Of a stretch of DNA of 64,000 bases, positions 22,801 to 39,986 are shown one piece after another (the stretch's first letter is position 1; the number at the start of each line of letters is the position of its first letter). A program made the translations under genes and the position numbers. The DNA comes from Ardenticatenales bacterium (GTDB lineage: Bacteria; Chloroflexota; Anaerolineae; Epilineales; Epilineaceae), in assembly GCA_020853525.1 (NCBI GenBank), contig JADYYS010000050.1, forward strand, positions 18,672-82,671. The letters are read 5' to 3'. Under the pieces are notes generated by a model. It did not search any database. It was not told the origin of the DNA and saw only the letters and a program-made list of their open reading frames with translations.

Positions 22801-23785
22801 GGGCGACGTCGTACGCGCGGTCGTCGACGGCACGGCGCTCGAGGCCACGTTGCCCGCGCTGACGTTCAAGGTCGACCGGGCCGCCCGCCGCGGCACGGGC
22901 AGCGCGCCGCCGGGCGCCATCGTCTCGATCGAGCACCCGGCCGGCAGTTGCGCCTCCCGCGACAGCGCCGATCCCATCGAGCGGACATCGTTTGCCTATG
23001 CCAGCCAGGCCACCGCCGACGGTCGCGGCGCGTACGATGCCTCGTTGCCGCTCTTGCCGCGCGCGCTCGAATCCGCGCGTCCGCCCGCGTTCGAAGCCGC
23101 CCTCCTCGACGCCGCCGGCCATCGCCACTTCCGCCTCAGCCGGGCGCTGCGCATCACGGCCCTCGTCGACACGGATCGCGTCACCGGGGAGGCCGATGCC
23201 GGCCGCAGCGTCGCCGTGACGCTCGCCCGCCCCGGCGGCCTCACCGCCCGCGGCACCGCCGTCGCCGACGCCCTCGGGCGCTTCACGGCGACGCTCGCCG
23301 CCGATGGCGGCGGTGCCGCGGTACGCCTGCAGGCAGGCGACTCCGTCGCGGCCACCGCGGACGGCGAGGCCCGCGGCCTGACCGTCCCGCCGCTGGCCGT
23401 CGACTGGCACCCCGAGCGGGGCCTCGACGGCCGGACGGATGCCGGCGCGACCATCCACGTCCGGTTCATCCTGCCGCGCGGGCTTGTCTCGGCGCAGGCG
23501 ACGGACTTCACGTTTGCGCTGACCGCCGACGCCACGGGCCGGTTCTCGAGCGCCGCCGCCGCAGCGCGCGGCCACTGGACCGCGGCTGACGTCCGGCGGG
23601 TCGAGGTCTGGCGGTCGTTCGAAGAGGACGATCGGGTGATGGTGGCGTTCGACACCGAGCGCGGCCCGGCACCGCCCACGCCGCCGGGCAGGCCGACGCC
23701 TGTCGCGACGGCGCGGCCACCGGACGGCGTGGACGGCGGGCGGGCGCACCTGCCGTGGGCGGGGCGAGAGGCGGACATGCCCTGA
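19817..23785 (+). CDS. Very large (~1320 aa) secreted protein built of repeated ~100-aa beta-sandwich (Ig-like) modules. Function unknown.
   Basis: Signal-like N-terminus MLRSRQAALVALALTAVAVGTALAAS. Recurring module ends TLTVPALAARW, LEATLPALTFKV, GLTVPPLAVDW and ALTVPPTAAHVD. No catalytic motif recognised. The start position is uncertain. Confidence 0.5.
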   Translation: MLRSRQAALVALALTAVAVGTALAASDPSRRSPDARVPDARAVHAAQGVRSPVTVTLDSGTVEWRAAPYAEVGAFWYSGESFYFNAFGSADSTGRVVLTWSDPTPERTDNDRPFEELDRLVLRAGTAVDVGAVYTITLPALDAEVDAPGDRIALRGPPGATLAVRVRRALDRDVLALTGTDVVRRDAGDVGGALAGQRSSGEPGRSVWAGNVTAGGDGATEVRLAGTVDVQPGDIVEVQRVWAGDTFVLRRTAFQLVTGDGLRQPVAYGRPGERVAVDVQSGGRRRGCATTIGRAGWRSWSCGEPIAAGDRITVSHSGGLLPLVRTTATVPQLAFRPGAGSKPADLTGPPNARLRFVEVDALGGPSGFDVVLDAQGQATLPAGRPARGSRYAYAWRDVSGITWGRGGFVPQIRLVLGEPRLRGVWPADPVTVTVSGHGGAVIGRWSRARTSSGSARSIPLYDPRSGPQEPLHRLAPGERIEVVVGGDEPVVWTVPDLALQFDADRNQLAGRLPLGTRGTLTVLEAIDGDPDPLQPLDDLADSRFVHRATLSLSPATDGAFAVRVSDLRTPDGFRLPAHRLVLYAVTAERADGNAVMAVVARPWLRIDAQSVSAEGFGPSGQTVDIEVADAAGRPVVRRRTDDAVATAIDRPVWSIPLVDAVGAPTALRPGDRVTVTIGASRSALTVPPTAAHVDLPGRSVRGRTAPNASLTIAFFGEAWGERRWVVRAGPDGTFETPLPAGVPLRHNDRGEILGRVGPHVVTAQIVVPSMIADLSVGRIWGRGAAGAPVDVTVLRQGRAVASGRRLVDDGLTFDVDPRDAGGRHVRPLAGDVVVQRVDGRPAMTLTVPALAARWVQADGAIAGTSPPGSAVDIQRPAGFELTGAGWDVGYADVAATGAFTASARHRFGLTTGLSALVQARVPDGVIAWRWVATPVLNVPHGGDSVCGQAMPWAVVHATATLGDGRTAEGSGGADPNGRFRIPLRRADGRPVVLAAGDVVRAVVDGTALEATLPALTFKVDRAARRGTGSAPPGAIVSIEHPAGSCASRDSADPIERTSFAYASQATADGRGAYDASLPLLPRALESARPPAFEAALLDAAGHRHFRLSRALRITALVDTDRVTGEADAGRSVAVTLARPGGLTARGTAVADALGRFTATLAADGGGAAVRLQAGDSVAATADGEARGLTVPPLAVDWHPERGLDGRTDAGATIHVRFILPRGLVSAQATDFTFALTADATGRFSSAAAAARGHWTAADVRRVEVWRSFEEDDRVMVAFDTERGPAPPTPPGRPTPVATARPPDGVDGGRAHLPWAGREADMP

Positions 23786-23883
23786 GGCCGCTCGCTCCCC
23801 CGGCAAGTCCCGCCGCCGCTCCGATCGTCACACCGCCCCCCACCCGCTATCGTTACGCCCTCGCCCATTCCGAGGAGCCGACG

Positions 23884-25005
23884 ATGCCCGTACTTCCGCC
23901 CGCCGGCCGCCCCGCCGTGCTCGCGCTCGTCCTTGGCGCCGCACTTTCGGCCGTCGCCTGCACCGATCGCGCGACGCGGACGCCCGCCCCGCCGACCGCC
24001 ACCCCGTCGCCCGTCGCGACCGCGACGCCGATCGCCTCGGCGACGGCCACCGCCACGGCCACGCCGCCGCCGCACGAGCTGTCCATCGAGTTCCTGCGCC
24101 GCAAGGCCCATCCCGGCGGCCCGCTGACCGTCGTGCGCGAGCTCGGGGCGAAGGGGAACTACACCCAGTCCGTCGTCCGCTACCCGTCGGACGGCCTGGC
24201 GATCCAGGCACTGTTGACCGTGCCGCAGGGCGATCCGCCGCCGACGGGCTGGCCGGCCGTCATCTTCAACCACGGCTACATCCCACCGGCGCAGTACCGC
24301 ACGACGGAGCGCTACGTCGCCTATGTCGACGCGTTCGCCCGCAACGGCTACATCGTCCTCAAGAGCGATTACCGCGGCCACGGTGAGAGCGAGGGCGATC
24401 CGTCCGGCGGCTACGGCAACCAGGGATACACGTCCGATGTCCTGAACGGGCTCGCATCGCTCCGCGCCCGGCCCGATGTCGACCCCGACCGGATCGGGAT
24501 GTGGGGTCACTCGATGGGCGGCTGGATCACGCTGCGGAGCATGGTGACGACGGACACCGTCAAGGCCGGTGTGATCTGGGCCGGCGTCGTGGCCAGCTAC
24601 CCTGATCTCCTGACGCGCTGGCGCCGTCCCGGCGCCCCGACGCAGCCGGCCGCGACCACCGCCGGCGGCCTGAGCGCGTCGTCCTCCGCCGGCCGCCGCT
24701 GGCGCACGGACCTCGTCGCGCGCTTCGGCGAGCCGGAGGCGAACCCCGCCGCGTGGGCACCCCTGTCGGCGAACACCTACCTCGCCGACCTGTCCGGCCC
24801 GATCGAACTCCACCACGGCACGGCGGACAGCAGCGTGCCGTTCGGCTTCTCGGAGACGCTCGTCGAAGAGATCGAGGCCGTCGGCGGCAACGTGGCGCTG
24901 TTCACCTACCCGGGCGACGACCACAACATCAGCGCGAACCTGTCGACGGCGCTGGCGCGGTCGGTGGCGTTCTTCGATGCACACGTGAAGGACATCGCGC
25001 CGTAG
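23884..25005 (+). CDS. Alpha/beta-hydrolase lipoprotein (prolyl-oligopeptidase / dienelactone-hydrolase-like).
   Basis: Lipobox ALSAVAC. Nucleophile elbow GMWGHSMGGW. A Thr/Pro/Ala-rich linker follows the lipobox. Confidence 0.7.
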   Translation: MPVLPPAGRPAVLALVLGAALSAVACTDRATRTPAPPTATPSPVATATPIASATATATATPPPHELSIEFLRRKAHPGGPLTVVRELGAKGNYTQSVVRYPSDGLAIQALLTVPQGDPPPTGWPAVIFNHGYIPPAQYRTTERYVAYVDAFARNGYIVLKSDYRGHGESEGDPSGGYGNQGYTSDVLNGLASLRARPDVDPDRIGMWGHSMGGWITLRSMVTTDTVKAGVIWAGVVASYPDLLTRWRRPGAPTQPAATTAGGLSASSSAGRRWRTDLVARFGEPEANPAAWAPLSANTYLADLSGPIELHHGTADSSVPFGFSETLVEEIEAVGGNVALFTYPGDDHNISANLSTALARSVAFFDAHVKDIAP

Positions 25006-25040
25006 TCGCGGACTCCCCCCATCGGCCCCCCCGGCCGACA

Positions 25041-25093
25041 TTGACACATCGATCGTGGTCGATATAATTGCCGCATCGATCGTCATCGATGTG
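25041..25093. promoter_or_regulatory. Consensus sigma70-type promoter TTGACA (25041-25046), 16-nt spacer, TATAAT (25063-25068), embedded in the inverted repeat CACATCGATCG ... CGATCGTCATCGATGTG. Candidate ArsR-family operator, suggesting autoregulation.
   Basis: Seen in the sequence. The promoter hexamers and spacing are perfect, and the palindrome arms flank and overlap them. Confidence 0.5.
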
Positions 25094-25481
25094 TTGTCTG
25101 GAGTCCGCCGTGACCGCAACCCAACCCACCGCCCTCTTGTTCGCCAAGGTCCTCGCCGACGACACGCGGCAGCGGATCATGACGTGCTGCTGCTGCACGT
25201 GGCGCTCGGTCGGTGACATCGTCGAGGCGCTGGGCGGCGACGTGGGGCAGCCGACGGTCTCGCATCACCTGGCGGTGCTGCGGGACGCGGGGCTGGTGCG
25301 GCTGCGGCGGGACGGTCGGCAGACGTTCTACGCGTTGGACCAGGAGCGCGTGGCGAGCTGCTGCGGTCAGGTGCTGACGTCGTTCGCGCCGCAGACCACG
25401 GCCGCGGCGGCGGTCGTCGCGTGCTGCGAGGACTGCGGCCCGGCGTCGACATCGGCGCCGATCGCGTTGGTCACGCCGTGA
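25089..25481 (+). CDS. ArsR/SmtB-family metal-sensing transcriptional repressor, unusually Cys-rich.
   Basis: Winged-HTH LADDTRQRIM...SVGDIVEALGGDVGQPTVSHHLAVLRDAGLV. It has a CCCC cluster (MTCCCCTW) and a C-terminal CC...CC.DC cluster. The start was chosen downstream of the promoter. The ORF-track start at 25068 would overlap the -10 hexamer. Confidence 0.7.
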   Translation: MCCLESAVTATQPTALLFAKVLADDTRQRIMTCCCCTWRSVGDIVEALGGDVGQPTVSHHLAVLRDAGLVRLRRDGRQTFYALDQERVASCCGQVLTSFAPQTTAAAAVVACCEDCGPASTSAPIALVTP

Positions 25482-25500
25482 CCGAGCGGGCGGGTTTTTT
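25470..25500. terminator. GC-rich stem followed by a T7 run (GGGCGGGTTTTTTTGG). Probable intrinsic terminator after the arsR-like gene.
   Basis: Seen in the sequence. U-tracts are rare in this GC-rich DNA. Confidence 0.4.
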
Positions 25501-25613
25501 TGGGCCAATGCATCGATGGCGATCGATTGGTTTGCCGCGGCGAAGACGTCGCCGCGGCAGCGCACCGAGCCGGACCGCGCTGTGCGTCCGGCCAACAGAT
25601 CCATGGAGGATCG

Positions 25614-25779
25614 CATGAACGATGTGACGGGTTCGCAGATCGAGGATCGGATGACGGCCGGTTGTTGCGACGGTGGGTCGGGGTGCTGCGGCGGCGGTTG
25701 TTGCGGCGGCGGCGGCTGCAGCTGCTGCTGCAGCGACGATTGCGGTTGCGATCCGACGGGCGACACCACGCCCCAGTAA
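25614..25779 (+). CDS. 54-aa Cys/Gly-rich peptide, metallothionein-like: MNDVTGSQIEDRMTAGCCDGGSGCCGGGCCGGGGCSCCCSDDCGCDPTGDTTPQ.
   Basis: It has a strong Shine-Dalgarno (GGAGGA, 4 nt before the ATG), 16 Cys in 54 residues, and sits immediately downstream of the ArsR-type sensor. A second ATCGAT-containing palindrome lies upstream of it at 25520-25545. Low-complexity frame artefacts (poly-Ala in the other frames) cannot be excluded. Confidence 0.45.
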
Positions 25780-25800
25780 GCCGGCACGCCGGTCGGTCGG

Positions 25801-26035
25801 GCCCAACAACCGGTCCCCCCCGGCCCGCACGCAAACGATGCCCGGTAGGGGCAGGTCCCCGTGCCTGCCCCGTAGGCCGTCCCATCACGCACCCCATTCC
25901 AAACCCAACAAGACGCGACGCGTGTCGTGTGGGCCGGGGATGGGGCGGGGTGGGGGGCCTACGGGGCAGGCACGGGGACCTGCCCCTACCGGGCATCGTT
26001 TGCGTGTCGGCCGGGGGTGTCGGTTGTTGGGCGCC
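25801..26035. repeat. Giant imperfect palindrome (~235 bp). Arms 25801-25877 and 25955-26035 carry a perfect 51-bp inverted repeat core. The 77-bp centre is itself quasi-palindromic around ACGCGT.
   Basis: Verified by reverse-complementing. 25826-25877 equals the reverse complement of 25955-26005 exactly. Confidence 0.85.
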
Positions 26036-26177
26036 ATTGCATTCATCGATCAAATGTTCTATTCTCCGATGCGTATAATCCCGATCGATCACCTGCTCGA
26101 GCGCCTGTCGCACGACACCCCGTCCGCCCCCACGCCGCCGACCGCCCGGTCGGCATCGCCCGCGCCCGGAGACCGCC

Positions 26178-28442
26178 ATGACGATCGCCCAGCCTTTGCT
26201 CGACCTCGACGGAACGCGCGATGAGGCGAACGGGCCGGCTGCCGATAGCCATCGCGTGGCCGTCGGCCAGACCGTCGACATCGCCGAGACCGCCGCACTG
26301 CCGCCGAATGCAAAGCCTGCGCCGCGCGCGCGCAAGACGGAAGCCGACGCGGCCGACTACGGCGCATCCTCCATCACCGAGCTTGGCTTCCCCGAGGCCA
26401 TCCAGAAGCGGCCCGGGATGTACATCGGCAGCCGCAGCAACCTCGGGCACCTGCTCGTCGAGATCGTCGACAACAGCATCGACGAGGCGATGGGCGGGCA
26501 CTGCTCGCGGATCGACGTCACGCTGAACGCGGACGGCAGCGCGACGGTGATCGACGACGGGCGCGGCGTGCCGACGGCGATCCATCCGGACAGCGGGCTC
26601 TCGGCGCTGGAGATGGCCTTCACGAAGCTCCATACCGGCGGCAAGTTCAACCAGGACAGCTACAGCACGTCCGGCGGGCTGCACGGCGTCGGGATCAAGG
26701 CGACGAACGCGCTGTCGGCGTGGCTCGTCGTCGAGGTCCGACGGGACGGCGTGAAGTATCGGCAGCGGTACGAGCACGGGTACGTGAAGTCGCCGGTCGA
26801 GATCCTCGACCCGAAGAGCGGCAAGGCCGTCGCGGTCGTCGGTTCGGCGGACGCGGCGGCGGCGACGAAGAAGGCGGCCGATCGCAAGCTCGGCACCGGG
26901 ACGACGATCACGTTCCTGCCGTCGAGCGAGTTCCTCGAGGTCACGCGCTTCGACTTCAGCGCGATCGCCCATCGGCTGCGGATCGCGGCCTATCTCATCC
27001 CGGGCCTCACGCTCACCCTCACGGACCTGCGCGGGCCGGAGACGCGCCGCCGCGAGTACCACGAAGAGGGAGGGTTGCCGGGCTACGTCGGCCACCTGAA
27101 CGAGAGCCGCAAGGTCATCCACGCCGCGCCGATTCGGATCCACGGCAACACCGACTCGGGCGTCGCCGTCGACCTGGCGTTCCAGTACCACACGGACGAC
27201 GACGAGGAGATCCTCAGCTTCGTCAACACGATTCCGACACCCGACGGCGGGACGCACGTCTCGGGCTTCCGCGCCGCGTTGACGAAGGCGATCAACGTCT
27301 TCGGCCAGGAGAAGAAGCTGATCAAGGGCGACGACGACATCACCGGCCGCGACACGACCGCAGGATTGACCGTCGCGCTATCCGTCATGATGCCCGAGCC
27401 CGAGTTCACGTCGCAGACGAAGACCCAGCTCGGCACGCGCGACGTCCACGGTCAGGTGCTCAGCTTGGCATACGAGCAACTCCTCGAGATCTTCCGGTCC
27501 GACTCGGCCCTCGGCCGCAAGATGGTCGATCGCTGTCTGGCCGCGTCCCGCGCCCGCGAAGCCGCCGCCAAGGCACGCAGCCTGGTCATGCGCAAGAGCA
27601 TCCTGGAGGCCGTGGACAGCGGCCTGCCCGGCAAGCTGGCGGACGTCGCCAAGAACGCCGACACGGCGCGGACAGTGCTCTACATCGTCGAGGGCGACTC
27701 GGCCGGCGGCAGCTGCAAGCAGGCGCGCAACAACAGGTTTCACGCGATCCTGCCGCTGCGCGGGAAGATCCTGAATACCGAGCGCGCCCGCCTGAACCGC
27801 GCCCTGTCCAACGCCGAGATCAAGTCGATCGTCTCGGCCGTCGGCGGCGGGATCGCGCGCGACTTCCGGGTCGAGGACATGCGCTACGCCGGCATCGCGA
27901 TCTTCGTCGACGCCGACGTGGACGGCCTGCACATCATGACGCTGCTGCTGACGCTCTTCTGGCGCTTCATGCGCCCCATGATCGACGCCGGCCGGCTGTA
28001 CGTGGCCCGCGCGCCGCTCTACCAGGTGAGCAAGGGCAAGCGCAGCGAGTACGCCTACACGGAGTGGGAGCGCGATCAGGTGATCGCCCGCTTCGGCAAG
28101 CAGGGCACGAGCGTGCAGCGCTACAAGGGCCTGGGCGAGATGAACCCGAGCCAGCTGAAGGAAACGGTCTTCAGCCTGCCCGAGACCGAGGGCGGCCCGA
28201 CGCCGTTCGCCAACCGCAACCTCTTCCGCGTGACCGTCGAGGACGCCCACCAGGCGAACCAGATGGTCCAGCTCTGGATGGGCGCGCACGTCGGCCCCCG
28301 CAAAGCGCGCCTGATGGCGATCTGGGACGGCGAAGCGACGTTCGACGAGCTGGCGGAGGACCTCGTCGCCGGGAGCGTCGACGACGTCGAGTTCACCGGG
28401 TTCGCCGGGTTCGCCGAGTCCGGCGACGACGAGGAAGGCTGA
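26178..28442 (+). CDS. gyrB: Type IIA topoisomerase ATPase subunit (GyrB/ParE family) with a ~55-aa non-conserved N-terminal extension.
   Basis: Motifs RPGMYIGS, LVEIVDNSIDEAMGGHC, GGLHGVG, the Toprim element EGDSAGGS, the QTK loop and KGLGEMNP are present. A TATAAT hexamer at 26073 lies upstream. The gyrB/parE distinction is not certain. Confidence 0.8.
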   Translation: MTIAQPLLDLDGTRDEANGPAADSHRVAVGQTVDIAETAALPPNAKPAPRARKTEADAADYGASSITELGFPEAIQKRPGMYIGSRSNLGHLLVEIVDNSIDEAMGGHCSRIDVTLNADGSATVIDDGRGVPTAIHPDSGLSALEMAFTKLHTGGKFNQDSYSTSGGLHGVGIKATNALSAWLVVEVRRDGVKYRQRYEHGYVKSPVEILDPKSGKAVAVVGSADAAAATKKAADRKLGTGTTITFLPSSEFLEVTRFDFSAIAHRLRIAAYLIPGLTLTLTDLRGPETRRREYHEEGGLPGYVGHLNESRKVIHAAPIRIHGNTDSGVAVDLAFQYHTDDDEEILSFVNTIPTPDGGTHVSGFRAALTKAINVFGQEKKLIKGDDDITGRDTTAGLTVALSVMMPEPEFTSQTKTQLGTRDVHGQVLSLAYEQLLEIFRSDSALGRKMVDRCLAASRAREAAAKARSLVMRKSILEAVDSGLPGKLADVAKNADTARTVLYIVEGDSAGGSCKQARNNRFHAILPLRGKILNTERARLNRALSNAEIKSIVSAVGGGIARDFRVEDMRYAGIAIFVDADVDGLHIMTLLLTLFWRFMRPMIDAGRLYVARAPLYQVSKGKRSEYAYTEWERDQVIARFGKQGTSVQRYKGLGEMNPSQLKETVFSLPETEGGPTPFANRNLFRVTVEDAHQANQMVQLWMGAHVGPRKARLMAIWDGEATFDELAEDLVAGSVDDVEFTGFAGFAESGDDEEG

Positions 28443-28445
28443 TCG

Positions 28446-30938
<2,493 letters not shown>

Positions 30939-30977
30939 GGGATGATTGCCGATGCTATCGCCACGCGATATCATTGA

Positions 30978-31259
30978 ATGATCCGCTCGTTCGCGTCGGC
31001 GGAGACGGAGCGCGTGTTCCTTGGTCGCATGTCGCGACGGCTGCCCACTGACATTCAGCGGGTGGCTCGCCGCAAGCTGCTGGTTCTGGATGCCGCCAGC
31101 TCGCTGAACGATCTGTCGGCACCGCCTGGCAACCGTCTCGAGAGGCTGCGAGGCGTTCGGAGCGAGCAGCACAGCATCCGCATCAACGACCAATGGCGCA
31201 TCTGCTTCCGTTGGGAAGACGGTGGCGCGGACAACGTCGAGATCGTCGACTACCACTGA
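30978..31259 (+). CDS. higB: HigB toxin (RelE/ParE superfamily, 'plasmid maintenance system killer').
   Basis: ...DAASSLNDLSAPPGNRLERLRGVRSEQHSIRINDQWRICFRWEDGGADNVEIVDYH is the characteristic HigB C-terminus. The toxin is encoded upstream of its antitoxin. Confidence 0.85.
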   Translation: MIRSFASAETERVFLGRMSRRLPTDIQRVARRKLLVLDAASSLNDLSAPPGNRLERLRGVRSEQHSIRINDQWRICFRWEDGGADNVEIVDYH

Positions 31260-31276
31260 TGAGAGGAGGCGTTGTA

Positions 31277-31593
31277 TGGACGCCGAAGATCGATTGCCGC
31301 CGGTCCATCCTGGCGAGGTCCTGCTCGAGGACTTCTTGAAGCCGCTCGGCCTCTCGCAGTACCGCTTGGCCGCGGAGATCGGCGTGCCTCCATTGCGGAT
31401 CAGCCAGATCGTTCGCGGTCGACGCGCCGTCACCGCCGACACCGCCATTCGCCTGGCACGCTACTTCAGCACAAGCGCGGAATTGTGGTTGCGGTTGCAG
31501 GCCGGCTACGACCTCGAGGTTGCCGAATTGGCCACCGGCGAGCGCATTCGCCGAGAGGTGCGAGTTCGCGGCGGGCAGCCGGTGGAGCATTAG
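31277..31593 (+). CDS. higA: HigA antitoxin (XRE-family HTH).
   Basis: PVHPGEVLLEDFLKPLGLSQYRLAAEIGVPPLRISQIVRGRRAVTADTAIRLARYFSTSAELWLRLQ. Confidence 0.85.
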
Positions 31594-31597
31594 GGCG

Positions 31598-31819
31598 ATG
31601 GACGCGCAGTTCACCGCCGTCTTCCAGCAGGTCCCCGAGGGCTACATCGCCTGGGTCGATGAGCTGCCGGGGGCGAACACCCAGCGCAACACTCTCGAGG
31701 AGGCCCGCGAAAACCTCGCCGAGGCCGTGATGCTCGTGTTGGAGGCCAACCGCATGCTGGCTGAGGAAGACCTGGCCAGCGCTGACGTGATCCGCGAGCT
31801 GTTGCTGCTGACGGCGTGA
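31598..31819 (+). CDS. HicB-like (UPF0150 family) antitoxin-domain protein with no adjacent HicA.
   Basis: MDAQFTAVFQQVPEGYIAWVDELPGANTQRNTLEEARENLAEAVMLVLEAN matches the HicB/UPF0150 pattern. It starts 4 nt after the higA stop. Confidence 0.55.
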   Translation: MDAQFTAVFQQVPEGYIAWVDELPGANTQRNTLEEARENLAEAVMLVLEANRMLAEEDLASADVIRELLLLTA

Positions 31820-31848
31820 CAGTTCAATGACCTGAACCTGGAGGATCG

Positions 31849-33270
31849 ATGCGAGGATTTGTGCAAACGCCTCCAAATGTCGTGGACCAGATGGTGGCCA
31901 TGCTCTTCCGCGACAGGCGACCTTCTCCCAGTGACCGCCTTCTTGATCCCGGCTGCGGCCCAGGCGCCTTCATCGCTGGCGTGCTGCGCTGGTGCGCGCG
32001 TGAAGGTGTGGAGCCACCGCAGATTGTCGGAATCGAACTCGATCCCGCGCATGTAACGTCGGCACGGGAACGATTCCGGAACGATCCGTGCGTGTGCATT
32101 CGAGGGGCCGACTTCTTGGATTGCCAGAATCAGGATCGATACGACTTCATCATCGGGAATCCGCCCTACGTATCAATCCTGCAGCTCTCCGAACAGGAAC
32201 GGGCTTACTACAAGTCGTCGTTTGTAACCGCAACTGGCAGGTTCGACCTCTACATGCTGTTCTTCGAGCAGGCAATCCGCCTCCTCGATGCAAGAGGCAC
32301 TCTCGTGCTCGTAACACCAGAAAAGTATGCGTATGTTGCCTCTGCGGGCCGTCTCCGCCAGAAGTTGGCCGGGCTCCATGTGACCGACTTCGTGCTCCTC
32401 GATGAGAGCGCGTTTGGCTCTCTTACAACATATCCTGCCATAACGCGCGTTCGCCACTCCCCGCCTGGGCCGTGCAGGATCACAACACGTGGGGGTGCTG
32501 AACGGATCGTAAACCTGCCAAGTGACGGCGCTTCATGGCGCTTCCATCTTCGCGATGGACGACCGTCGTTGCTCACGCCCAGCGGTGAGACGCTGCGGGA
32601 GTTCTGCGATCGCATAAGTTGCGGTATCGCGACAGGTGCGGATCGGGTGTTTGTAATGCCGTCAGATCACGTGCCTGCGCGCCTCGAAAAGTTTGCCTGG
32701 CCGACGATCTCGGGTCGTCAACTCACGATGGCTCCAGAACGCATCGCGACGACCTCGTCGATTCTCGTTCCATACGATAGGCAGGGAGATCTCCTGCCGT
32801 TGGCGGAACTGGAAGAGCTGGGAGAATATCTGCGCACACCCGCGATCGCCCTTCGCCTTCGCGCTCGATCCTGCGTCGCGCGTAAGCCCTGGTATTCCTT
32901 TCACGACTCCGTACCCATGCGTGATCTGGTCCGGCCCAAACTCATCTGCAAGGACATTTGTGCCGAGGCATCTTTCTGGATCGATTCCAAGGGAGAGATC
33001 ATACCCGGGCATTCCGCCTACTACCTCGTGCCGCGTGTCGCCGCGCTGCTCGAGCCCATGGCACACTACCTTAATAGCAGCCTAGTTCGTTCTTGGCTGC
33101 GAGATCACAGCCAGCGTGCGGCAAATGGCTTTCTTCGGAATCAGAGTACAATTCTTAAGCAAGTGCCCATTATATCCGAAGTTGCAAGAGATTGGCGACA
33201 ATTATTAGGTGAACACTCTCTCTCGGCTGATGGTGATAGCTTGGCCGTGCACCTGGAGCCGCTGCCGTGA
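31849..33270 (+). CDS. Gamma-class N6-adenine DNA methyltransferase (TaqI / Eco57I-like). Lies in lower-GC DNA.
   Basis: Motif I LLDPGCGPGAFI. Motif IV FIIGNPPYV. MRGFVQTPPNVVDQMV at the start, with a GGAGGA Shine-Dalgarno. Local GC is roughly 50% against ~70% in the flanks. Confidence 0.8.
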   Translation: MRGFVQTPPNVVDQMVAMLFRDRRPSPSDRLLDPGCGPGAFIAGVLRWCAREGVEPPQIVGIELDPAHVTSARERFRNDPCVCIRGADFLDCQNQDRYDFIIGNPPYVSILQLSEQERAYYKSSFVTATGRFDLYMLFFEQAIRLLDARGTLVLVTPEKYAYVASAGRLRQKLAGLHVTDFVLLDESAFGSLTTYPAITRVRHSPPGPCRITTRGGAERIVNLPSDGASWRFHLRDGRPSLLTPSGETLREFCDRISCGIATGADRVFVMPSDHVPARLEKFAWPTISGRQLTMAPERIATTSSILVPYDRQGDLLPLAELEELGEYLRTPAIALRLRARSCVARKPWYSFHDSVPMRDLVRPKLICKDICAEASFWIDSKGEIIPGHSAYYLVPRVAALLEPMAHYLNSSLVRSWLRDHSQRAANGFLRNQSTILKQVPIISEVARDWRQLLGEHSLSADGDSLAVHLEPLP

Positions 33271-34049
33271 CAACGCCGATAGATCAAGTGATTGCAGAAA
33301 TGACAAGGGTGCGCTTTCATAATCATCGGAGCGAAGCGCACTCAGACATCATTAGTCATGGTATCTGGAATCTTCTCTTGGACCGTTGCCCGGCGATTAG
33401 TACGGACTTTGAGCGAGACAAGATCGACTTTTGGACGAATGTGGAGGTGCCGGGACTGACTCACCGTATTGATATGATGGTTTGCGAGGTTGGCCCGCAT
33501 CCAAGCACTCCATCGCTTGAACGCGCAAGAATCTGCTTAGAGAACAAGACCGTCATAACAGCGCATGGCAAGAATCGTCGCAATCGTCACAGTGACCTCT
33601 CCGACTTTTATCGCCTAGTACAGAGCACGACGCCGGAGGCTATCGTCCTTGGAACCGTTTTGATCGGAACGGCGGAGCAATATCTGAATATTCCGGACAG
33701 CGTGCGACCTGCATGCAAGCTGCTAGATATCAACTTTGAAACAGACGTGCTTCCGCGACTCTCTTCTGGCGATGAGTCGCTATGGGATCAATTCCGAACT
33801 CTAGTTGGACAGAATCGATCATCTGATGCTGCAAAGACCGTCGAGCTTATGCGATCACTTCCGACCAGACCGCGAGGGTTTACACACGAGACGGGGTTTG
33901 ATTATCTCTGGATTGTGCCCCTGCGAATTGACAATGTATCCGCGCCCCGCGTCGTCAGGCAAAACGAGTTTGCCATCGACATCGACGGCGAGTTCGAGGA
34001 AATGATCGATACGATTTGTCGTAGATACACTTCCCGCTGGTCACCCTAG
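33267..34049 (+). CDS. Putative restriction endonuclease partner (candidate PD-(D/E)xK: HRIDMMVCEV ... CLENK). No family recognised.
   Basis: Its GTG start overlaps the MTase TGA stop (GTGA). It shares the low GC of the MTase. The only internal argument is the D...E-x-K spacing. Confidence 0.4.
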   Translation: MTTPIDQVIAEMTRVRFHNHRSEAHSDIISHGIWNLLLDRCPAISTDFERDKIDFWTNVEVPGLTHRIDMMVCEVGPHPSTPSLERARICLENKTVITAHGKNRRNRHSDLSDFYRLVQSTTPEAIVLGTVLIGTAEQYLNIPDSVRPACKLLDINFETDVLPRLSSGDESLWDQFRTLVGQNRSSDAAKTVELMRSLPTRPRGFTHETGFDYLWIVPLRIDNVSAPRVVRQNEFAIDIDGEFEEMIDTICRRYTSRWSP

Positions 34050-34246
34050 ATGATGCCCGGAGCTTCGTTGTCGCGAGTACGCGATTGATCCTTGAATGGT
34101 TCCTGTTCTACCGCAAAGCAGCCGCTCTTGCACTAAGATGTGTCTAGCGCGGCGGCGTCGATCGCCATTTCAGCCAACGTCCGCGAAATCGCAAGACTAC
34201 AAGTATGATTGCCGCCGATTCCATATGTGGACGCACCCCAAACCAC

Positions 34247-35047
34247 CTATGGCCCTGCGTCAAACCACGCATGTAATCGCGCCATTCCTTCTGTGGAATC
34301 GGCCCCGGCGTCCGCCTTCTTGGGTGTCATCGGAGTCGGAGTCGGCGTCGGCCACGCCCTTACCGTCGCCGTCGGTGACGCCGGTGGCCGCGACCCCGTC
34401 ATCGTCGCCGTCCCCGCCGGAACGTCAACCGTCGCCGTCGCCCCCACCCCCGGTGTCCCCTCGTCCTCCCACCAGTACGAGCTCATTCCCCCGATGCAGT
34501 CATCGCACGTCGCGGCCGGGAAGAGTTCCATGCTGCGGTTGATCCGGATCGGTCCGCTGCCGGCCCGTCCGGCCCGCAAGACACCGTCGCCGCGCAGCTC
34601 GATGCGCCAGTAACAGATCCAAGGCGGGCCTGCCGGGAAGATGTCCTCGAGGAGCGACCAGTCCTCCGGAAATCGCTCGTCGTGCTCGGCTGCCGTCATG
34701 CGCAGGGCGGCGACGACCTCGGTGTAGAGATCATGATCGCCCAACCGTCCGTGCAATCCCATCATCGCCGACTGGAGCCGCGCGTGCTCCACCGCGTCAA
34801 AGCGGCTCATCCCACCGCGGCACACCGCCAGCGGATGGCCTTTGCTGAGAAGCGGCAAGTAGATGTGCCCAGGCGCCGCGTGCGCCGCATGCGCCGCCGA
34901 ACCGAGGAGCGGCTGCAGTTCGTCAGGTCGAACCAGCACACGCGCCGACGATCTGCCCAAGATCGTGCCCGCGGCCACGCAGATGGCCAGGCATGCGGCA
35001 CCGACGAGCCTCGCCAAGGCACTTGAACGACGGTTGTGGATCACGGG
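34247..35047 (-). CDS. Hypothetical membrane-anchored protein with a Thr/Pro-rich C-terminal tail. No family recognised.
   Basis: Long ORF on the minus strand. The hydrophobic segment ARLVGAACLAICVAAGTILG is the only recognisable feature. The start position is uncertain. Confidence 0.3.
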   Translation of the reverse strand, partial: PVIHNRRSSALARLVGAACLAICVAAGTILGRSSARVLVRPDELQPLLGSAAHAAHAAPGHIYLPLLSKGHPLAVCRGGMSRFDAVEHARLQSAMMGLHGRLGDHDLYTEVVAALRMTAAEHDERFPEDWSLLEDIFPAGPPWICYWRIELRGDGVLRAGRAGSGPIRINRSMELFPAATCDDCIGGMSSYWWEDEGTPGVGATATVDVPAGTATMTGSRPPASPTATVRAWPTPTPTPMTPKKADAGADSTEGMARLHAWFDAGP

Positions 35048-35275
35048 CACCTCGGGGATCGTCGCGGTCAGCATCGCAAGGTGATCCGAGCTGCCGGGAG
35101 TATCGTCCTCGGCGGGCGCGGAAGCAAAGCGATCGATGGGTCGGTGCGCCGGTCTGCACTTCCGGTAGCGAGCCGTCGGCAGCGGCTCCCGACTTCTGAA
35201 TCGTGTATCTTCCACGGCACGGCTCGAAGTCGCATGAGGCTGCCCCTGTGGCAAAGCGTTGACAAGTACGTGTAA

Positions 35276-35902
35276 GTGGCTACGCTTTGCCACATGATCG
35301 TCGCCGACTCCGCCTCCCGGATCCTTCAGCTGGCGCGCCGCCGCGGCTCGATCACGCGCCGCGAAGTCGCCGCGGCCGGAATCCACAGCCAAGCGCTCAG
35401 CCGGTTGGTGATGTCCGGTCGCCTCGAACGCGTGGGGCGGGGCCACTATCGACTGCCCGACACTCCGATGACGGAGCACCACGGCCTGGCGCTTATCGCA
35501 GCCGCCGCCCCTGGGGCGGTGATCTGCCTGCTCTCAGCGCTCAGCTTCCACCGTGTCGGCACCCAGCTCCCTCATGAGGTCTGGATCGCGCTCGATCGCC
35601 GAAGCCGCCGGCCGGCGATTGCGTATCCGCCGCTCCGCGTCGTGCGCTTCGGAGGTGCAGCGCTGACCGATGGAATCGAGACGCATGTAATCGAAGGACA
35701 AGCTGTCCGCGTCTACTGTGTGGCCAAAACGCTCGCGGACACCTTCAAGTATCGCAACAAGGTCGGCCTCGATGTCGCGATCGAAGCGCTGCGCGACGCT
35801 TGGCAATCGCGCCGGGCCACGATGGCCGAGATCAGCCGTTTCGCACGCATCTGCCGCGTGGAGCAGGTGATGCGACCGTACCTCGAGGCATTGGTCGCAT
35901 GA
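35276..35902 (+). CDS. AbiEi-family antitoxin / transcriptional regulator (type IV TA). No cognate AbiEii (DUF1814) toxin follows it.
   Basis: N-terminal wHTH ARRRGSITRREVAAAGIHSQALSRLVMSGRLERVGRGHYRLPD. The C-terminal part reads CLLSALSFH...VYCVAKTLADTF...GLDVAIEALRDAW. Confidence 0.65.
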   Translation: MATLCHMIVADSASRILQLARRRGSITRREVAAAGIHSQALSRLVMSGRLERVGRGHYRLPDTPMTEHHGLALIAAAAPGAVICLLSALSFHRVGTQLPHEVWIALDRRSRRPAIAYPPLRVVRFGGAALTDGIETHVIEGQAVRVYCVAKTLADTFKYRNKVGLDVAIEALRDAWQSRRATMAEISRFARICRVEQVMRPYLEALVA

Positions 35903-35946
35903 CGCCGGCCAGCGGCGGCCTAGCGTCATCGGTGCACACCCCTCAC

Positions 35947-36768
35947 TCAGCCCTCCGTCGCCGGCCCCCCTGGCACAAACGTGTCGCTGACAGCGATCAC
36001 ATGCCGCATAAACGCCAGCGTCTCCACCACGTCCCCCGGATCGGCCGGCGTTCGCGCCCGCCCGCTCGGGTCCGGCCGGTCGGCGACTGCGCGCTGGATG
36101 AGATCGGTCCATCGGGGGTCCAACTGCGCCTGCGCCCACGCAGCCGCCGCCGGCTTCGAGACGACGGTGCCGGTGGCCAAGGTGTGGAGCATCCGGCAGT
36201 AGGTCAGCACCGCGAAGGGCTGGTAGAACCGGTTGCCGATGTGCTCCGGGTGGGCGAACCAGCCGTCGGCGCGGCTGTGCATAATCGCGCGCACCTCGCG
36301 CCGGAGATCGTCGACCGGCACCGGGTCGAGAAGGGTGCGGATGTCCGGCCCGGCCAGCGTGATCCCCCGTTCGCGCAGCTGCCAGCGGACGACGAACGTG
36401 TTGTCGTGTTGGGAGCGCTCGACCACGCGGCTGCCGTTGTCGAAGTACAGTAGCGGGGCGCTGTCGGGTGCGTAGCGTCGCAGCGCGTGCCGGGTGATGT
36501 ACGAACCCTCGAGGTGCTTCGCCCAGTTGGAGTCGAGCGCCCAGAGCCGCGCCTGCATCGCCTCGATATCCGCCACCTGGTCATCCGCGATGTCGCGCTC
36601 GACCACGATCATGTAGTCCACGTCGCTGGCCTCGTCCGGGTCGCCGACCGCGAAGGAGCCGTGCAGGTAGGCGCCGACGAAGTTGCCGGCCAGGAGCGTC
36701 TTGTTGGCGGCGACGAGCTGGACGAGAATGGCGTTGAGGTCGGTGCAGTCCGTCGAATGAATCGGCAT
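35947..36768 (-). CDS. Nucleotidyltransferase-domain + DUF4111 protein (AadA-like aminoglycoside adenylyltransferase family).
   Basis: GAYLHGSFAVGDPDEASDVDYMIVV is the Pol-beta NTase signature. LLDPVP and VLTYCRMLHTLATG align with the AadA C-terminal domain. Confidence 0.75.
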   Translation of the reverse strand: MPIHSTDCTDLNAILVQLVAANKTLLAGNFVGAYLHGSFAVGDPDEASDVDYMIVVERDIADDQVADIEAMQARLWALDSNWAKHLEGSYITRHALRRYAPDSAPLLYFDNGSRVVERSQHDNTFVVRWQLRERGITLAGPDIRTLLDPVPVDDLRREVRAIMHSRADGWFAHPEHIGNRFYQPFAVLTYCRMLHTLATGTVVSKPAAAAWAQAQLDPRWTDLIQRAVADRPDPSGRARTPADPGDVVETLAFMRHVIAVSDTFVPGGPATEG

Positions 36769-36969: not shown

Positions 36970-38040
36970 ATGGACCTCACCACCTACCGCCAGCGCTTCT
37001 TCGCCGATCCCGCCCCCGCGCCCCGCTTCGCCTATCACGGCGTCCACGGCGTGACGCTCTACTTCGCGGACTACGACGCGGCCGTGGCCTACTACACGCG
37101 CGTCCTCGGCCCGCCGGCCTACGTCGAGGGCGATGGCACCCGCGGCTGGCCGCTGGGCGACACCTGGCTCACGCTGCTGAAGGGCGGCGACGGTGCCCCG
37201 CGAAACGTCGAAGTGGCGATCGTCATGGCGTCGGCGGCAGAGGCGGAGCGCCTGCAGGCGGCGTTCATCGCGGCCGGCGGGACGGGCGACGCGCCGCGCG
37301 ACGATCTGATGTACGAGCCCGTTCGCCTGTGCCCGGCGCGCGATCCGTTCGGCACCGACGTCCTCGTCTACAGCCGCACGGCCCGCAGCGTCCGCGGCGC
37401 GGGCACCGCGCGGCGCCCGCGCCGCGGCGTCTTGCGGCGCGCCGGCTTCGCGCTCCTGACCGCCCTCTCCCTCGCCATCGCCGGCTATGCCGTCTGGGCG
37501 TACGGGTTCCGCCCCATCGGCGCGCTCGTCGATCCGCAGATGCGGGCGACGTTCGAGGCGCACCGTATCGGCTTGTACGCCCATGTGTTCGGGGCCGTGT
37601 TCGCGCTCGCGCTCGGGCCGGCGCAGTTCTCGTCGTGGCTGCACGGCCGGTACCTGGCGGTCCACCGCTGGACGGGGCGGCTCTACCTGGGCCTGGGCGT
37701 CCTTGTGGGCGGATCGGCCGGGTTGTACATGGCGTTCCATGCGTTCGGCGGACCTGTCGCCCGCGCCGGCTTCGCCTGCCTAGCCGTGGCGTGGCTGGCC
37801 AGCGGCCTGCTGGCCTACCGGGCGATCCGCGGCGGCGACGAGCCGGCGCATCGGCGCTGGATGATCCGCAACTTCAGCCTGACGTTCGCCGCGGTGACGC
37901 TGCGGTTGTGGCTGCCGGCGGCGATGGCCGCCGGCGTGCCGTTCGCCACCGCCTATCCCGTCATCGCCTGGCTGTGCTGGGCGCCGAATGTGGCGGTGGC
38001 CGAGGCGCTGTGGAACCGGGGGGTGTGGCGGGCGGCGTAG
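36970..38040 (+). CDS. Fusion of a glyoxalase/VOC domain (N-terminal) and a DUF2306 membrane domain.
   Basis: YHGVHGVTLYFADYDAAVAYYTRVLG is a VOC fold. Multiple TM helices follow (LLTALSLAIAGYAVW, LYLGLGVLVGG...). Confidence 0.65.
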   Translation: MDLTTYRQRFFADPAPAPRFAYHGVHGVTLYFADYDAAVAYYTRVLGPPAYVEGDGTRGWPLGDTWLTLLKGGDGAPRNVEVAIVMASAAEAERLQAAFIAAGGTGDAPRDDLMYEPVRLCPARDPFGTDVLVYSRTARSVRGAGTARRPRRGVLRRAGFALLTALSLAIAGYAVWAYGFRPIGALVDPQMRATFEAHRIGLYAHVFGAVFALALGPAQFSSWLHGRYLAVHRWTGRLYLGLGVLVGGSAGLYMAFHAFGGPVARAGFACLAVAWLASGLLAYRAIRGGDEPAHRRWMIRNFSLTFAAVTLRLWLPAAMAAGVPFATAYPVIAWLCWAPNVAVAEALWNRGVWRAA

Positions 38041-38355: not shown

Positions 38356-39513
38356 CTACGGCGTCGTGTCCTTGATCGTCAGCCGGATGTCCGCGTAGTC
38401 CTTGTCGTACGTCTTCGTCGAGCCGCTGCCGGCCGCCGGCGGCTGCGGCGTCGCCGTCGGCTGGGTCGCCGTCGTCGGTTGGGATGCGACCGTCGGTTGG
38501 GATGCGACCGTCGGTTGGGATGCGGTCGTCGGCGCCGGCACCGAGGTCGGCTCGCCCGAGGCAAGCGGAGGGAACGGGTTCACGCCGATGTCGTTGCCCT
38601 TCTGCGCATAGTTGCAGACGACGATGTCGTTGCCCCCGGACGAGACGGCCTTGCCGCAGCCGATCCGCGTCGACGTCGACCAGACCACCTGCGTGAAGTG
38701 GCCGCACACCGCGCCCGGCGTGCAGCACACCGTGAGGCCGCCGCTGCAGCTGACGTCCCAGTCCTTGACCTCGCTGCCCCAGTCGTCCACCACCGCGTCC
38801 GGCCCCCAGTGGCCCGCGGTGCCCATCCATAGGTTCTCGCCGTACAGGCGCTCGGAGCGGTGCTCGAACGCGTTCCGGGCCGCCAGGTCGTCGGCCCACG
38901 CCTGGGCGTAGGACGCGATCGCCGGGTCCCACGACACCGCCGCCGTTCCGTAGTTCGCCCGCCAGCGGTTGTGCGCGTTCACATAGGCGGTGACGTCGGC
39001 CGGTCCGAGCCCGGTCGTCGAGCCCGTGTCGGCGACACTGTCGGCGACACTGTCGGACGACATGCTGTCGGACGACATGCTGTCGGACGGCGCGTCGCTC
39101 TGAGCGGGACCCTTGGGGTCTGCGGCGGCCACGAACCCGCCGGGAAGGATCGGCTCCTGGTCGCCGCCGGGCGAGGGCTTGACCGGCCTGCCGATCGCCT
39201 CGGGCTCGACAGGAACGATGGGCTCGACGGGAACGACCGGCTCAACTGGCTCGACGGCGGCGACCGGTGCGACGTACGTCGAGACCTCGACCGCCGAGCC
39301 GGCCAGGTCGCCCGGCGCCCCCTGGCCACAGGCGGTCAGGGCCAGCAACGGGACGATGAGCACGGTGACGGCTGCGATTCGCGCGGATGACCCTGCGTTT
39401 CCTCGCCTTGTTCCTCGATGGATGACGGCGGCCGCATCGGGAGACGACCTGGATGGCCCGGTGCATCGCACGAAGTCGCCAGTTGGACCGGGAAATCGAC
39501 GTTTCCGAACCAT
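38356..39513 (-). CDS. CAP/SCP/PR-1-domain lipoprotein with three tandem-repeat low-complexity linkers.
   Basis: Lipobox LLALTACG. CAP motifs HNRWRANYGTAAVSWD, GHFTQVVW and IGCG. Repeats VEPVEPVVPVEPIVPVEPE, SDSMSSDSMSSDSVADSVAD and ASQPTVASQPTVASQPTTATQPTATPQP, the last encoded by 15-bp DNA repeats at 38440-38530. Confidence 0.7.
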   Translation of the reverse strand: MVRKRRFPGPTGDFVRCTGPSRSSPDAAAVIHRGTRRGNAGSSARIAAVTVLIVPLLALTACGQGAPGDLAGSAVEVSTYVAPVAAVEPVEPVVPVEPIVPVEPEAIGRPVKPSPGGDQEPILPGGFVAAADPKGPAQSDAPSDSMSSDSMSSDSVADSVADTGSTTGLGPADVTAYVNAHNRWRANYGTAAVSWDPAIASYAQAWADDLAARNAFEHRSERLYGENLWMGTAGHWGPDAVVDDWGSEVKDWDVSCSGGLTVCCTPGAVCGHFTQVVWSTSTRIGCGKAVSSGGNDIVVCNYAQKGNDIGVNPFPPLASGEPTSVPAPTTASQPTVASQPTVASQPTTATQPTATPQPPAAGSGSTKTYDKDYADIRLTIKDTTP

Positions 39514-39692
39514 TCCTACACGGGCACCGCCCAAAAAGTCTCCGCTTCGAACGAGGATGTTTCGTCGTCCGGGTCCGTGCGCCCGGCCGCTCTGCATGGT
39601 ACGCTTGCCTTCGAGGTCGCGCCGTGCAGCGCGCCCCACGGCTGCCCGAGTTCTTTCGGCAACCAATGCCAGGCCGCAGGAGCGGCGATCCG

Positions 39693-39986
39693 ATGAACAT
39701 GGCAACCATCACGTTCAGCGGCGAGATCTGGTCCTGGCGCGGCCCCGCCCCGTTCCACTTCGTGACCGTGCCGGAGAAGGAGTGCGAGGACCTCAAGGCG
39801 ATCTCCGGCGCCGTGACGTACGGCTGGGGCATGATTCCGGTCGCTGTTCAGATCGGCGAAACCCGGTGGACGACCTCGCTGTTCCCCAAGGACGGCCGCT
39901 ACCTCGTGCCGCTCAAGGACGCCGTTCGCAAGGCGGAACGACTGGACGCGGGGGACACGGTGACGGTGCGGCTCGACGTCGGTTGA
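39693..39986 (+). CDS. DUF1905-domain protein.
   Basis: MNMATITFSGEIWSWRGPAPFHFVTVP...YGWGMIPVAVQIGETRWTTSLFPKDGRYLVPLKDAVRKAERLDAGDTVTVRLDV. Confidence 0.65.
   Translation: MNMATITFSGEIWSWRGPAPFHFVTVPEKECEDLKAISGAVTYGWGMIPVAVQIGETRWTTSLFPKDGRYLVPLKDAVRKAERLDAGDTVTVRLDVG

Follow-up and report, generated by a model that had tools for sequence, protein, structure and literature searches.

A candidate restriction-modification cassette and orphaned antitoxin genes in a variable patch behind a gyrB/gyrA-like operon of an Ardenticatenales bacterium

We analysed a stretch of 64,000 nucleotides (nt) from the metagenome-assembled genome of an Ardenticatenales bacterium (Chloroflexota; assembly GCA_020853525.1, contig JADYYS010000050.1, positions 18,672 to 82,671), hereafter the window, with all positions counted from its first letter. 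Our subject is a cluster of defence-type genes that begins directly behind a gyrB/gyrA-like operon. The cluster is most probably a recombination-prone accessory patch that arose through stepwise gain and erosion, and no new kind of system is needed to explain it. Its sole new element is a family of candidate restriction endonucleases; all other components belong to known kinds of system. We propose that a hicB-hicA pair once followed the toxin-antitoxin (TA) genes higB and higA, and that the loss of hicA would have left hicB as an orphan antitoxin gene. A low-GC, two-gene Type II restriction-modification (R-M) cassette, presumably acquired horizontally, would then have taken the place of hicA; its methyltransferase would protect host sites, while a translationally coupled PD-(D/E)XK endonuclease (D69/E92/K94) would cut unmethylated incoming DNA. 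Further along, an abiEi-abiEii operon would have inserted beside a resident 275-aa open reading frame (ORF), after which abiEii would have been deleted to 14 codons and abiEi kept together with its inverted-repeat operator. The genes for an AadA-like nucleotidyltransferase (NTase), a DUF2306 protein and a CAP-domain protein would be unrelated neighbours.

Boundaries and composition of the variable segment

The extent of the patch follows from comparison with contig L011, from a close relative, and contig L012, which align to the window at 96% nt identity over 22009-31711 and again from 39628 on. Identity to L011 falls from 97-100% to 86% at the start of higB (the two higB copies are 86% identical, versus 97% for the adjoining gyrA-like gene) and is regained, at 96-97%, at a DUF1905 gene (Table 1); the accessory segment therefore begins exactly at higB and ends at ~39630, so that relative to L011 it runs from 30978 to ~39630. 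A preliminary description of this DNA had proposed a lower-GC islet of defence and TA genes, inserted after the topoisomerase genes and spanning 30978-36768. Every gene that it listed exists at or near the place given, and the comparison with L011 agrees both with a variable accessory patch directly after the topoisomerase genes and, to the nucleotide, with the left edge; the right edge was set too early, as the segment continues to ~39630. In L011 the gene order is gyrB-like, gyrA-like, higB, higA, a truncated 59-aa hicB, a 274-aa ORF, a 146-aa ORF, DinB_2 and DUF1905. None of the methyltransferase, nuclease, AbiEi, NTase, DUF2306 and CAP genes of the window occurs in the L011 patch, which has the 146-aa ORF and DinB_2 where the window has the last two.

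The predicted drop in GC is real (a minimum of 0.51 vs 0.69), but it is not a property of the islet as a whole. Mean GC of the window is 0.69, with 1-kb intervals as low as 0.58 and 0.525 between 32 and 34 kb; the lowest 800-bp value of the entire window, 0.511 or ~4 standard deviations under the mean, lies at 33.1 kb, and the AT-rich string quoted in the preliminary description is found at 33150-33177. Low GC is limited to one 2.4-kb block (~31.85-34.3 kb) comprising the methyltransferase gene, a 260-aa ORF and their 3' tail. GC and GC at third codon positions (GC3) are 0.58 and 0.62 in the methyltransferase gene, and 0.515 and 0.55 in the 260-aa ORF. Elsewhere in the islet GC3 is 0.80 in higB, 0.72 in higA, 0.80 in the 275-aa ORF and 0.78 in abiEi, and it is host-like (0.905) in both hicB and the NTase gene; core genes have GC3 of 0.90-0.94, and the gyrB/gyrA-like genes 0.94.

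Similarity to L011 breaks on the left inside hicB, at 31711. On the right, the block bearing the R-M genes breaks off at ~34325-34338, which is the position of the L011 stop codon for the 274-aa ORF. The apparently acquired tail replaces the relatives' stop codon, adding ~27 C-terminal codons (…PMTPKKADAGADSTEGMARLHAWFDAGP) and a stop to the minus-strand 275-aa ORF (34247-34330). In L011 the replacement DNA, which lies between the truncated hicB and the 274-aa ORF, contains at 10935-11012 of that contig a 22-nt tandem repeat of 3.5 copies (consensus TCCTTAGTAGGACTGGCGCGAT) that is not present in the window. There is no tRNA gene near the islet, and there are no Rfam matches in 29-41 kb. ARAGORN made one odd call in the window at 2508-2609, a 102-nt tRNA-like structure with a 4-base anticodon (gagc) that is probably a false positive of high-GC DNA.

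A candidate Type II restriction-modification cassette

Linkage, a catalytic motif and a predicted fold all indicate that the methyltransferase gene and the 260-aa ORF form a putative mobile Type II R-M cassette, in agreement with their first description as an R-M pair. In six of six unrelated contexts, namely the window and five others (L004/5, L006/7, L009, L107/8 and L109/10), the 260-aa gene directly follows an Eco57I/TaqI_C methyltransferase gene with an overlap of 4 nt, which reads GTGA in the window. The methyltransferases of the five other contexts are 401-478 aa long, and the genes flanking the cassette are unrelated housekeeping genes in each. Identity to the window proteins in L004, L006 and L009 is 47-50% for the methyltransferase and 48-53% for the endonuclease, and the two values move together. 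Cassette GC is below that of the flanks in L004 and L009, though not in L006, and with the window it is low in three of four hosts. DNA matches in plasmids, and protein matches of the endonuclease in plasmid and phage collections, were both absent. In L004 (202-6786; assembly GCA_943368005.1) the cassette sits in a recognisable defence island, next to a gene for an OLD-family (AAA_15 + TOPRIM) nuclease and a phage-integrase fragment.

The 260-aa protein is recorded by NCBI as hypothetical protein IT332_10730, and it has no match in Pfam, PADLOC or NCBIfam, nor, by profile search, among PDB sequences; ten distant members of its family likewise match no Pfam endonuclease family. Type II endonucleases are too divergent for recognition by sequence. 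We found at least 181 homologs of ~260 aa, all unnamed, and among 1.84 billion cluster representatives searched by profile there were 317 clusters (50% identity) at E <= 1e-3, all of them stand-alone proteins of ~240-300 aa or fragments. Residues D69, E92 and K94 are invariant in a 43-member alignment (D-x22-E-N-K). In an AlphaFold2 (AF2) model of high confidence (predicted local distance difference test, pLDDT, 93.5; predicted template modelling score, pTM, 0.89) D69 sits in strand 68-74, and strand 87-96 holds both E92 and K94. The motif thereby occupies strands 2 and 3 of a core ordered as helix, three strands, helix, strand, which is the PD-(D/E)XK arrangement. Foldseek searches with this model returned no significant match; the top weak PDB matches were the restriction enzymes BbvCI, BstEII, Bse634I, BspD6I and SgrAI (E 0.06-0.3), and the top viral ones a cyanophage 'restriction endonuclease' (E 2.5e-3, probability 0.94) as well as RecB-family, Mrr and UL24 proteins. 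The 260-aa protein is likely, in our view, to be a Type II restriction endonuclease whose family Pfam, NCBIfam and PADLOC lack. Its earlier proposal as a PD-ExK nuclease candidate is well matched by the invariant residues on the expected strands, and nuclease activity is predicted on that basis.

The upstream gene encodes a predicted gamma-class N6-adenine DNA methyltransferase, which matches the PADLOC model MTase_II at E 9e-39 and carries NPPY at residue 104 and LLDPGCGPGAF near residue 32. Among PDB sequences it is most similar to M.BseCI and M.TaqI (E 5e-15), over the catalytic domain only; the C-terminal recognition domain could not be aligned to that of solved methyltransferases. The pair resembles Type II R-M systems with gamma-class methyltransferases (TaqI, BseCI/ClaI-type) in having separate methyltransferase (M) and endonuclease (R) genes on the same strand with M first, in joining an N-terminal catalytic domain with NPPY to a TaqI_C-like C-terminal recognition domain, and in the small size (260 aa) and D...ExK motif of the endonuclease. 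It differs in its endonuclease, for which sequence similarity could be detected neither to the endonuclease models of Pfam, NCBIfam and PADLOC nor to any PDB chain.

This last point leaves room for a solitary or regulatory methyltransferase, whose 260-aa partner would be a repair nuclease, a PD-ExK nuclease of another kind or an accessory protein without catalytic activity: the partner lacks significant similarity to characterised endonucleases, the endonuclease models of PADLOC, Pfam and NCBIfam fail to detect it, and no particular palindrome is avoided in the 64-kb window. We regard such an arrangement as unlikely, given that the two genes are strictly linked and translationally coupled in all six unrelated contexts, that the pair appears to move as a unit with anomalous GC in three of the four hosts compared, and that D...ExK is invariant on the expected strands.

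If the two genes are instead an R-M cassette, as we prefer, its position raises the question of expression. The genes higB, higA, hicB, M and R are co-directional, with spacings of 17, 4, 29 and -4 nt, and no terminator is predicted between any of them; upstream of M there are 29 nt here versus 200-500 nt in the five other contexts. The cassette may be transcribed from the TA promoter. One could go further and suppose that it was caught without a promoter, that the five genes now form one chimeric operon under the HigA-autoregulated TA promoter, and that the endonuclease founds a family of ~317 clusters missing from the Pfam, NCBIfam and PADLOC libraries searched here. Taken as a whole this supposition is doubtful; if true, restriction and methylation levels would be set by the HigA-autoregulated TA promoter.

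Several observations weigh against the account given here, of both the patch and the cassette. L011 is not a clean empty site, having a truncated hicB and 318 nt of unrelated DNA, and because of this the order of events can only be inferred. An integrase that would mark an insertion mechanism is absent from the region, and no target-site duplication or terminal inverted repeats surround the cassette beyond chance-level short matches. No promoter of its own is obvious in the 29 nt after hicB, which leaves expression of the cassette in doubt. Finally, no recognition site could be deduced, a palindrome-avoidance test of the window having given only generic CTAG depletion.

Toxin-antitoxin genes: one intact pair and two orphans

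The first two genes of the segment are predicted to be an intact type II TA pair. As the preliminary description had it, the toxin gene lies upstream, and both the RelE-fold HigB-like toxin (PF05015) and the helix-turn-helix (HTH) antitoxin HigA (TIGR02607) are above their curated cutoffs. The higA ATG at 31277 is preceded by GAGGAGG, and the L011 copy is also 105 aa long. In gene order and family membership the pair matches HigBA systems with no notable difference, as far as it is known here from its genes.

In contrast to this pair, the hicB-like gene, which begins 4 nt past the higA stop, has no toxin partner in the window. The UPF0150 Pfam score of its 73-aa product is 22.2 bits, below the gathering cutoff of 27.3, while a 73%-identical homolog that is paired with HicA scores 27.5. 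Relatives of the protein are encoded at nine metagenomic loci. At four of these (L098, L099, L100 and L104), where identity is 62-73%, the next gene in each case is an ORF of 61-63 aa with the signature ...REGGSH..Y.N...PRHREI..., which overlaps the stop of the hicB homolog by 4 nt at all of these loci but L104, where it begins ~10 nt after the match. The L098 copy matches HicA_toxin PF07927 (E 4.9e-10, above cutoff). Searched by tblastn with the four HicA partners of the homologs, neither the window nor L011 showed a remnant of hicA, the best hit (E 0.12) lying elsewhere. The local protein thus resembles UPF0150/HicB-like proteins encoded directly upstream of HicA in hicB-first HicAB systems; it differs from such systems in the missing hicA, in lacking an appended DNA-binding domain and in its Pfam score. 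We take it to be a putative antitoxin orphaned by loss of HicA, that is, part of a decayed system, and the first reading of it as a HicB without HicA holds. The methyltransferase gene starts ~29-30 nt after the hicB stop; together with the position of HicA after hicB homologs and the absence of a hicA remnant, this argues that the R-M cassette sits in the place of hicA.

A second orphan lies further downstream. AbiEi, the type IV TA antitoxin and regulator, is full length, and its residues 14-200 match PDB 6y8q and 9hlo. After it, only a stump of abiEii remains: MTPASGGLASSVHT, encoded by the 14 or so codons that overlap the abiEi stop, aligns with the start of the intact AbiEii of contig L014 (MTPAIGGLASSVHT...). 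That contig aligns to the window over 34369-35939 at 88% nt identity and carries a homolog of the 275-aa ORF, a 98%-identical AbiEi and an intact AbiEii (PADLOC E 2.9e-89) whose gene also overlaps the abiEi stop by 4 nt; similarity ends at ~35939-35941, ~6 nt before the stop codon (35947-35949) of the convergent NTase gene. More distant AbiEi homologs (74-75% identity, L111-113) also occur in canonical abiEi-abiEii operons. From these alignments AbiEi appears to have been orphaned by deletion of abiEii, leaving a decayed system and not a new pair. The lack of AbiEii had been pointed out in the preliminary description, and of the alternatives it offered the one of 'decayed systems' is borne out. 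We also searched for AbiEii on the plus strand opposite the NTase gene, where nothing beyond the first 14 codons aligned. The long plus-strand ORF at 35800-36453 was rejected as a gene, being an antisense artefact of high-GC DNA; the stump is in frame with it, and read-through could give a ~184-aa chimera (14 aa of AbiEii plus antisense) that is probably meaningless.

What remains of the operon may still be regulated. Two published studies (PMC3985639, PMC7319586) describe autoregulation by AbiEi via inverted repeats. Upstream of the local abiEi is an inverted repeat that encloses a TTGACA box (Table 1), and the same sequence precedes the intact abiE operon of L014; the repeat and the box are probably the operator and promoter of AbiEi. 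Because this arrangement fits the published autoregulation, the orphan AbiEi is probably still expressed and self-repressed. Compared with the AbiE type IV TA abortive-infection system (Dy et al. 2014, PMC3985639), the local locus has a full-length AbiEi behind a 23-nt inverted repeat that resembles published autoregulatory operators, and homologs of AbiEi with 74-98% identity share a bicistronic operon with AbiEii, but with its toxin gene cut to 14 codons it cannot act as an AbiE system, and is at most an autoregulated orphan antitoxin or regulator. In L015 (5001-5606), and also in L016 and L017, an 82%-identical AbiEi without AbiEii is encoded within a Type I R-M operon, where its gene sits between hsdM and hsdS in the order hsdM, abiEi, hsdS, fic, hsdR; the hsdR product carries a SLFN/AlbA_2 domain at its C-terminus. 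A regulatory role may fall to such orphan abiEi genes inside R-M operons.

The NTase next to abiEi had prompted the suggestion of a non-canonical pairing, a type IV TA or defence unit in which an enzyme with the aminoglycoside nucleotidyltransferase (ANT) fold would replace the DUF1814 toxin. AbiEii and the NTase are indeed both members of the Pol-beta-type NTase superfamily, abiEi and the NTase gene lie just 45 nt apart, and the NTase N-terminus weakly matches the PADLOC candidate model PDC-S09 (E 8e-8). Nevertheless, the genes are convergent and hence form no operon, and the 14-codon abiEii stump lies between them, where similarity to the intact abiE operon breaks. In the homolog contexts read, AbiEi has AbiEii as its partner (L014, L111-113) or occurs by itself within the Type I R-M operon (L015-17), never beside this NTase, and the GC3 of the two genes differs (0.78 in abiEi vs 0.905 in the NTase gene). 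The pairing is therefore highly improbable, and we treat the NTase as a stand-alone gene and an unrelated neighbour.

The resident 275-aa open reading frame

Between the R-M block and abiEi lies the minus-strand 275-aa ORF, a resident lineage-specific gene that is not linked to the defence genes. In its product an N-terminal hydrophobic helix (residues 16-38 of the model) is followed by a conserved central domain of ~140 aa and a Pro/Thr-rich tail. The membrane-anchored ORF reported earlier exists, although the start then assigned, 35047, is probably 27 nt short: one gene call places the start at 35074, and NCBI calls just 187 aa. There are only five homologs, one of them (P0122) on L011/L012, and an AF2 model based on these five had a pLDDT of 35.6 and was unusable.

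The preliminary description had entertained the idea that this ORF and the 260-aa ORF belong to an undescribed defence module. A single multi-gene module of the two with the orphan antitoxins would fit their clustering in a variable region that holds defence-type genes. In L011/L012, though, the 275-aa ORF stands beside the HigBA-hicB remnant where neither R-M nor AbiE genes are present, which speaks against any part for it in a defence module. The M-R pair likewise occurs without any other component in five other contexts, the hicB and abiEi homologs have canonical toxins of their own elsewhere, and the GC3 values of the components are far apart. We consider a common module very unlikely, and prefer an accessory patch assembled from separate pieces.

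Neighbouring genes

The operon upstream of the segment consists of a gyrB-like gene (754 aa, with an N-terminal extension of ~55 aa) and a gyrA-like gene (830 aa). Both products fall under the NCBIfam equivalog cutoffs for GyrB/GyrA and ParE/ParC, with 741 bits vs a cutoff of 877 for gyrA and 667 vs 882 for gyrB. A GTDB scan with the GyrA-like protein found only two species above 50% identity (71% and 55%), most matches in Chloroflexota being at 41-47%; the two species share nothing downstream of the topoisomerase genes, and the ancestral state cannot be read from them. The two genes may encode a second type IIA topoisomerase, a paralog of narrow distribution.

The NTase has the two-domain layout (NTase + AadA_C) of AadA/ANT(3'')(9) enzymes and distantly matches AadA structures in the PDB over both domains (E ~1e-6). 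It is far below every NCBIfam resistance cutoff, its best match being the ANT(9) subfamily model with 74 bits against a cutoff of 340, and no resistance function can be assigned to it. In the CAP/SCP-domain protein at the far end of the segment there are short in-frame repeats: SQPTVA occurs three times close to the C-terminus, and DSMSS/DSVA repeats lie upstream of the CAP domain.

Table 1. Features in and around the variable segment, with nt identity to the relative L011
Feature	Position	Strand	Identity to L011	Basis or remarks
gyrB-like gene	26178-30938 (with gyrA-like gene)		96.2%	
gyrA-like gene	26178-30938 (with gyrB-like gene)		97.0%	
gyrA-higB spacer			100%	
higB, RelE-fold toxin, 93 aa, intact	30978..31259	+	86.1%	PF05015 E 1.1e-18, profile 8-91/91, 67.9 bits (cutoff 27)
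higA, HTH antitoxin, 105 aa	31277..31593	+	91.2%	TIGR02607 E 1.2e-31, 108.3 bits (cutoff 47.7); HTH_3
hicB-like (UPF0150) antitoxin gene, 73 aa, full length, without hicA	31598..31819	+	87.7% (5' half)	weak UPF0150/HicB_lk matches
Gamma-class N6-adenine DNA methyltransferase, 473 aa (predicted)	31849..33270	+		Eco57I PF07669 E 3e-19; TaqI_C weak; N6_Mtase weak
Candidate PD-(D/E)XK Type II restriction endonuclease, 260 aa	33267..34049	+		invariant D/E/K motif, AF2 fold, methyltransferase linkage
Low-GC 3' tail of putatively acquired segment	34050..34330	.		GC 0.55 (34050-34246); L011 similarity back at 34338
Lineage-specific ORF, 275 aa	34247..35074	-	82.6%	no Pfam/PADLOC/NCBIfam match
Inverted repeat, 23-nt arms, TTGACA box enclosed	35247..35294	.		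arms 35247-35269 and 35272-35294, 83% complementary
abiEi, type IV TA antitoxin/regulator, 202 aa, orphan	35294..35902	+		PADLOC AbiEi E 2.9e-82 (positions 4-198/198); PF13338
abiEii stump, first ~14 codons (MTPASGGLASSVHT)	35900..35941	+		overlaps abiEi stop by 4 nt (ATGA)
AadA-like nucleotidyltransferase (NTase + AadA_C/DUF4111), 273 aa	35947..36768	-		PF13427 E 1.8e-12
DUF2306 membrane protein	36970-38040	+		Pfam DUF2306 E 1e-37
CAP/SCP-domain protein, start codon uncertain	38356-39705	-		Pfam CAP E 9e-21
DUF1905 gene			95.9%	
0.9 kb next to DUF1905			97.3%	

Implications

The locus leaves the current understanding of defence systems unchanged. It is a clean example of TA decay: two toxins are gone, the breakpoints lie just beyond the antitoxin stop, and the antitoxins and an operator are kept. 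Toxin loss with antitoxin retention would be the expected pattern among survivors and would reflect selection, because losing the antitoxin alone would be lethal. Where an orphan antitoxin gene is found next to an NTase gene, gene stumps and homolog contexts should be checked before a new pairing is called. As for the candidate endonuclease, its family has no Pfam, NCBIfam or PADLOC model, and PADLOC-type pipelines would probably call the methyltransferase an orphan; with this family added, R-M systems of bacteria from soil and wastewater would be better annotated, and an enzyme of new specificity may come from it.

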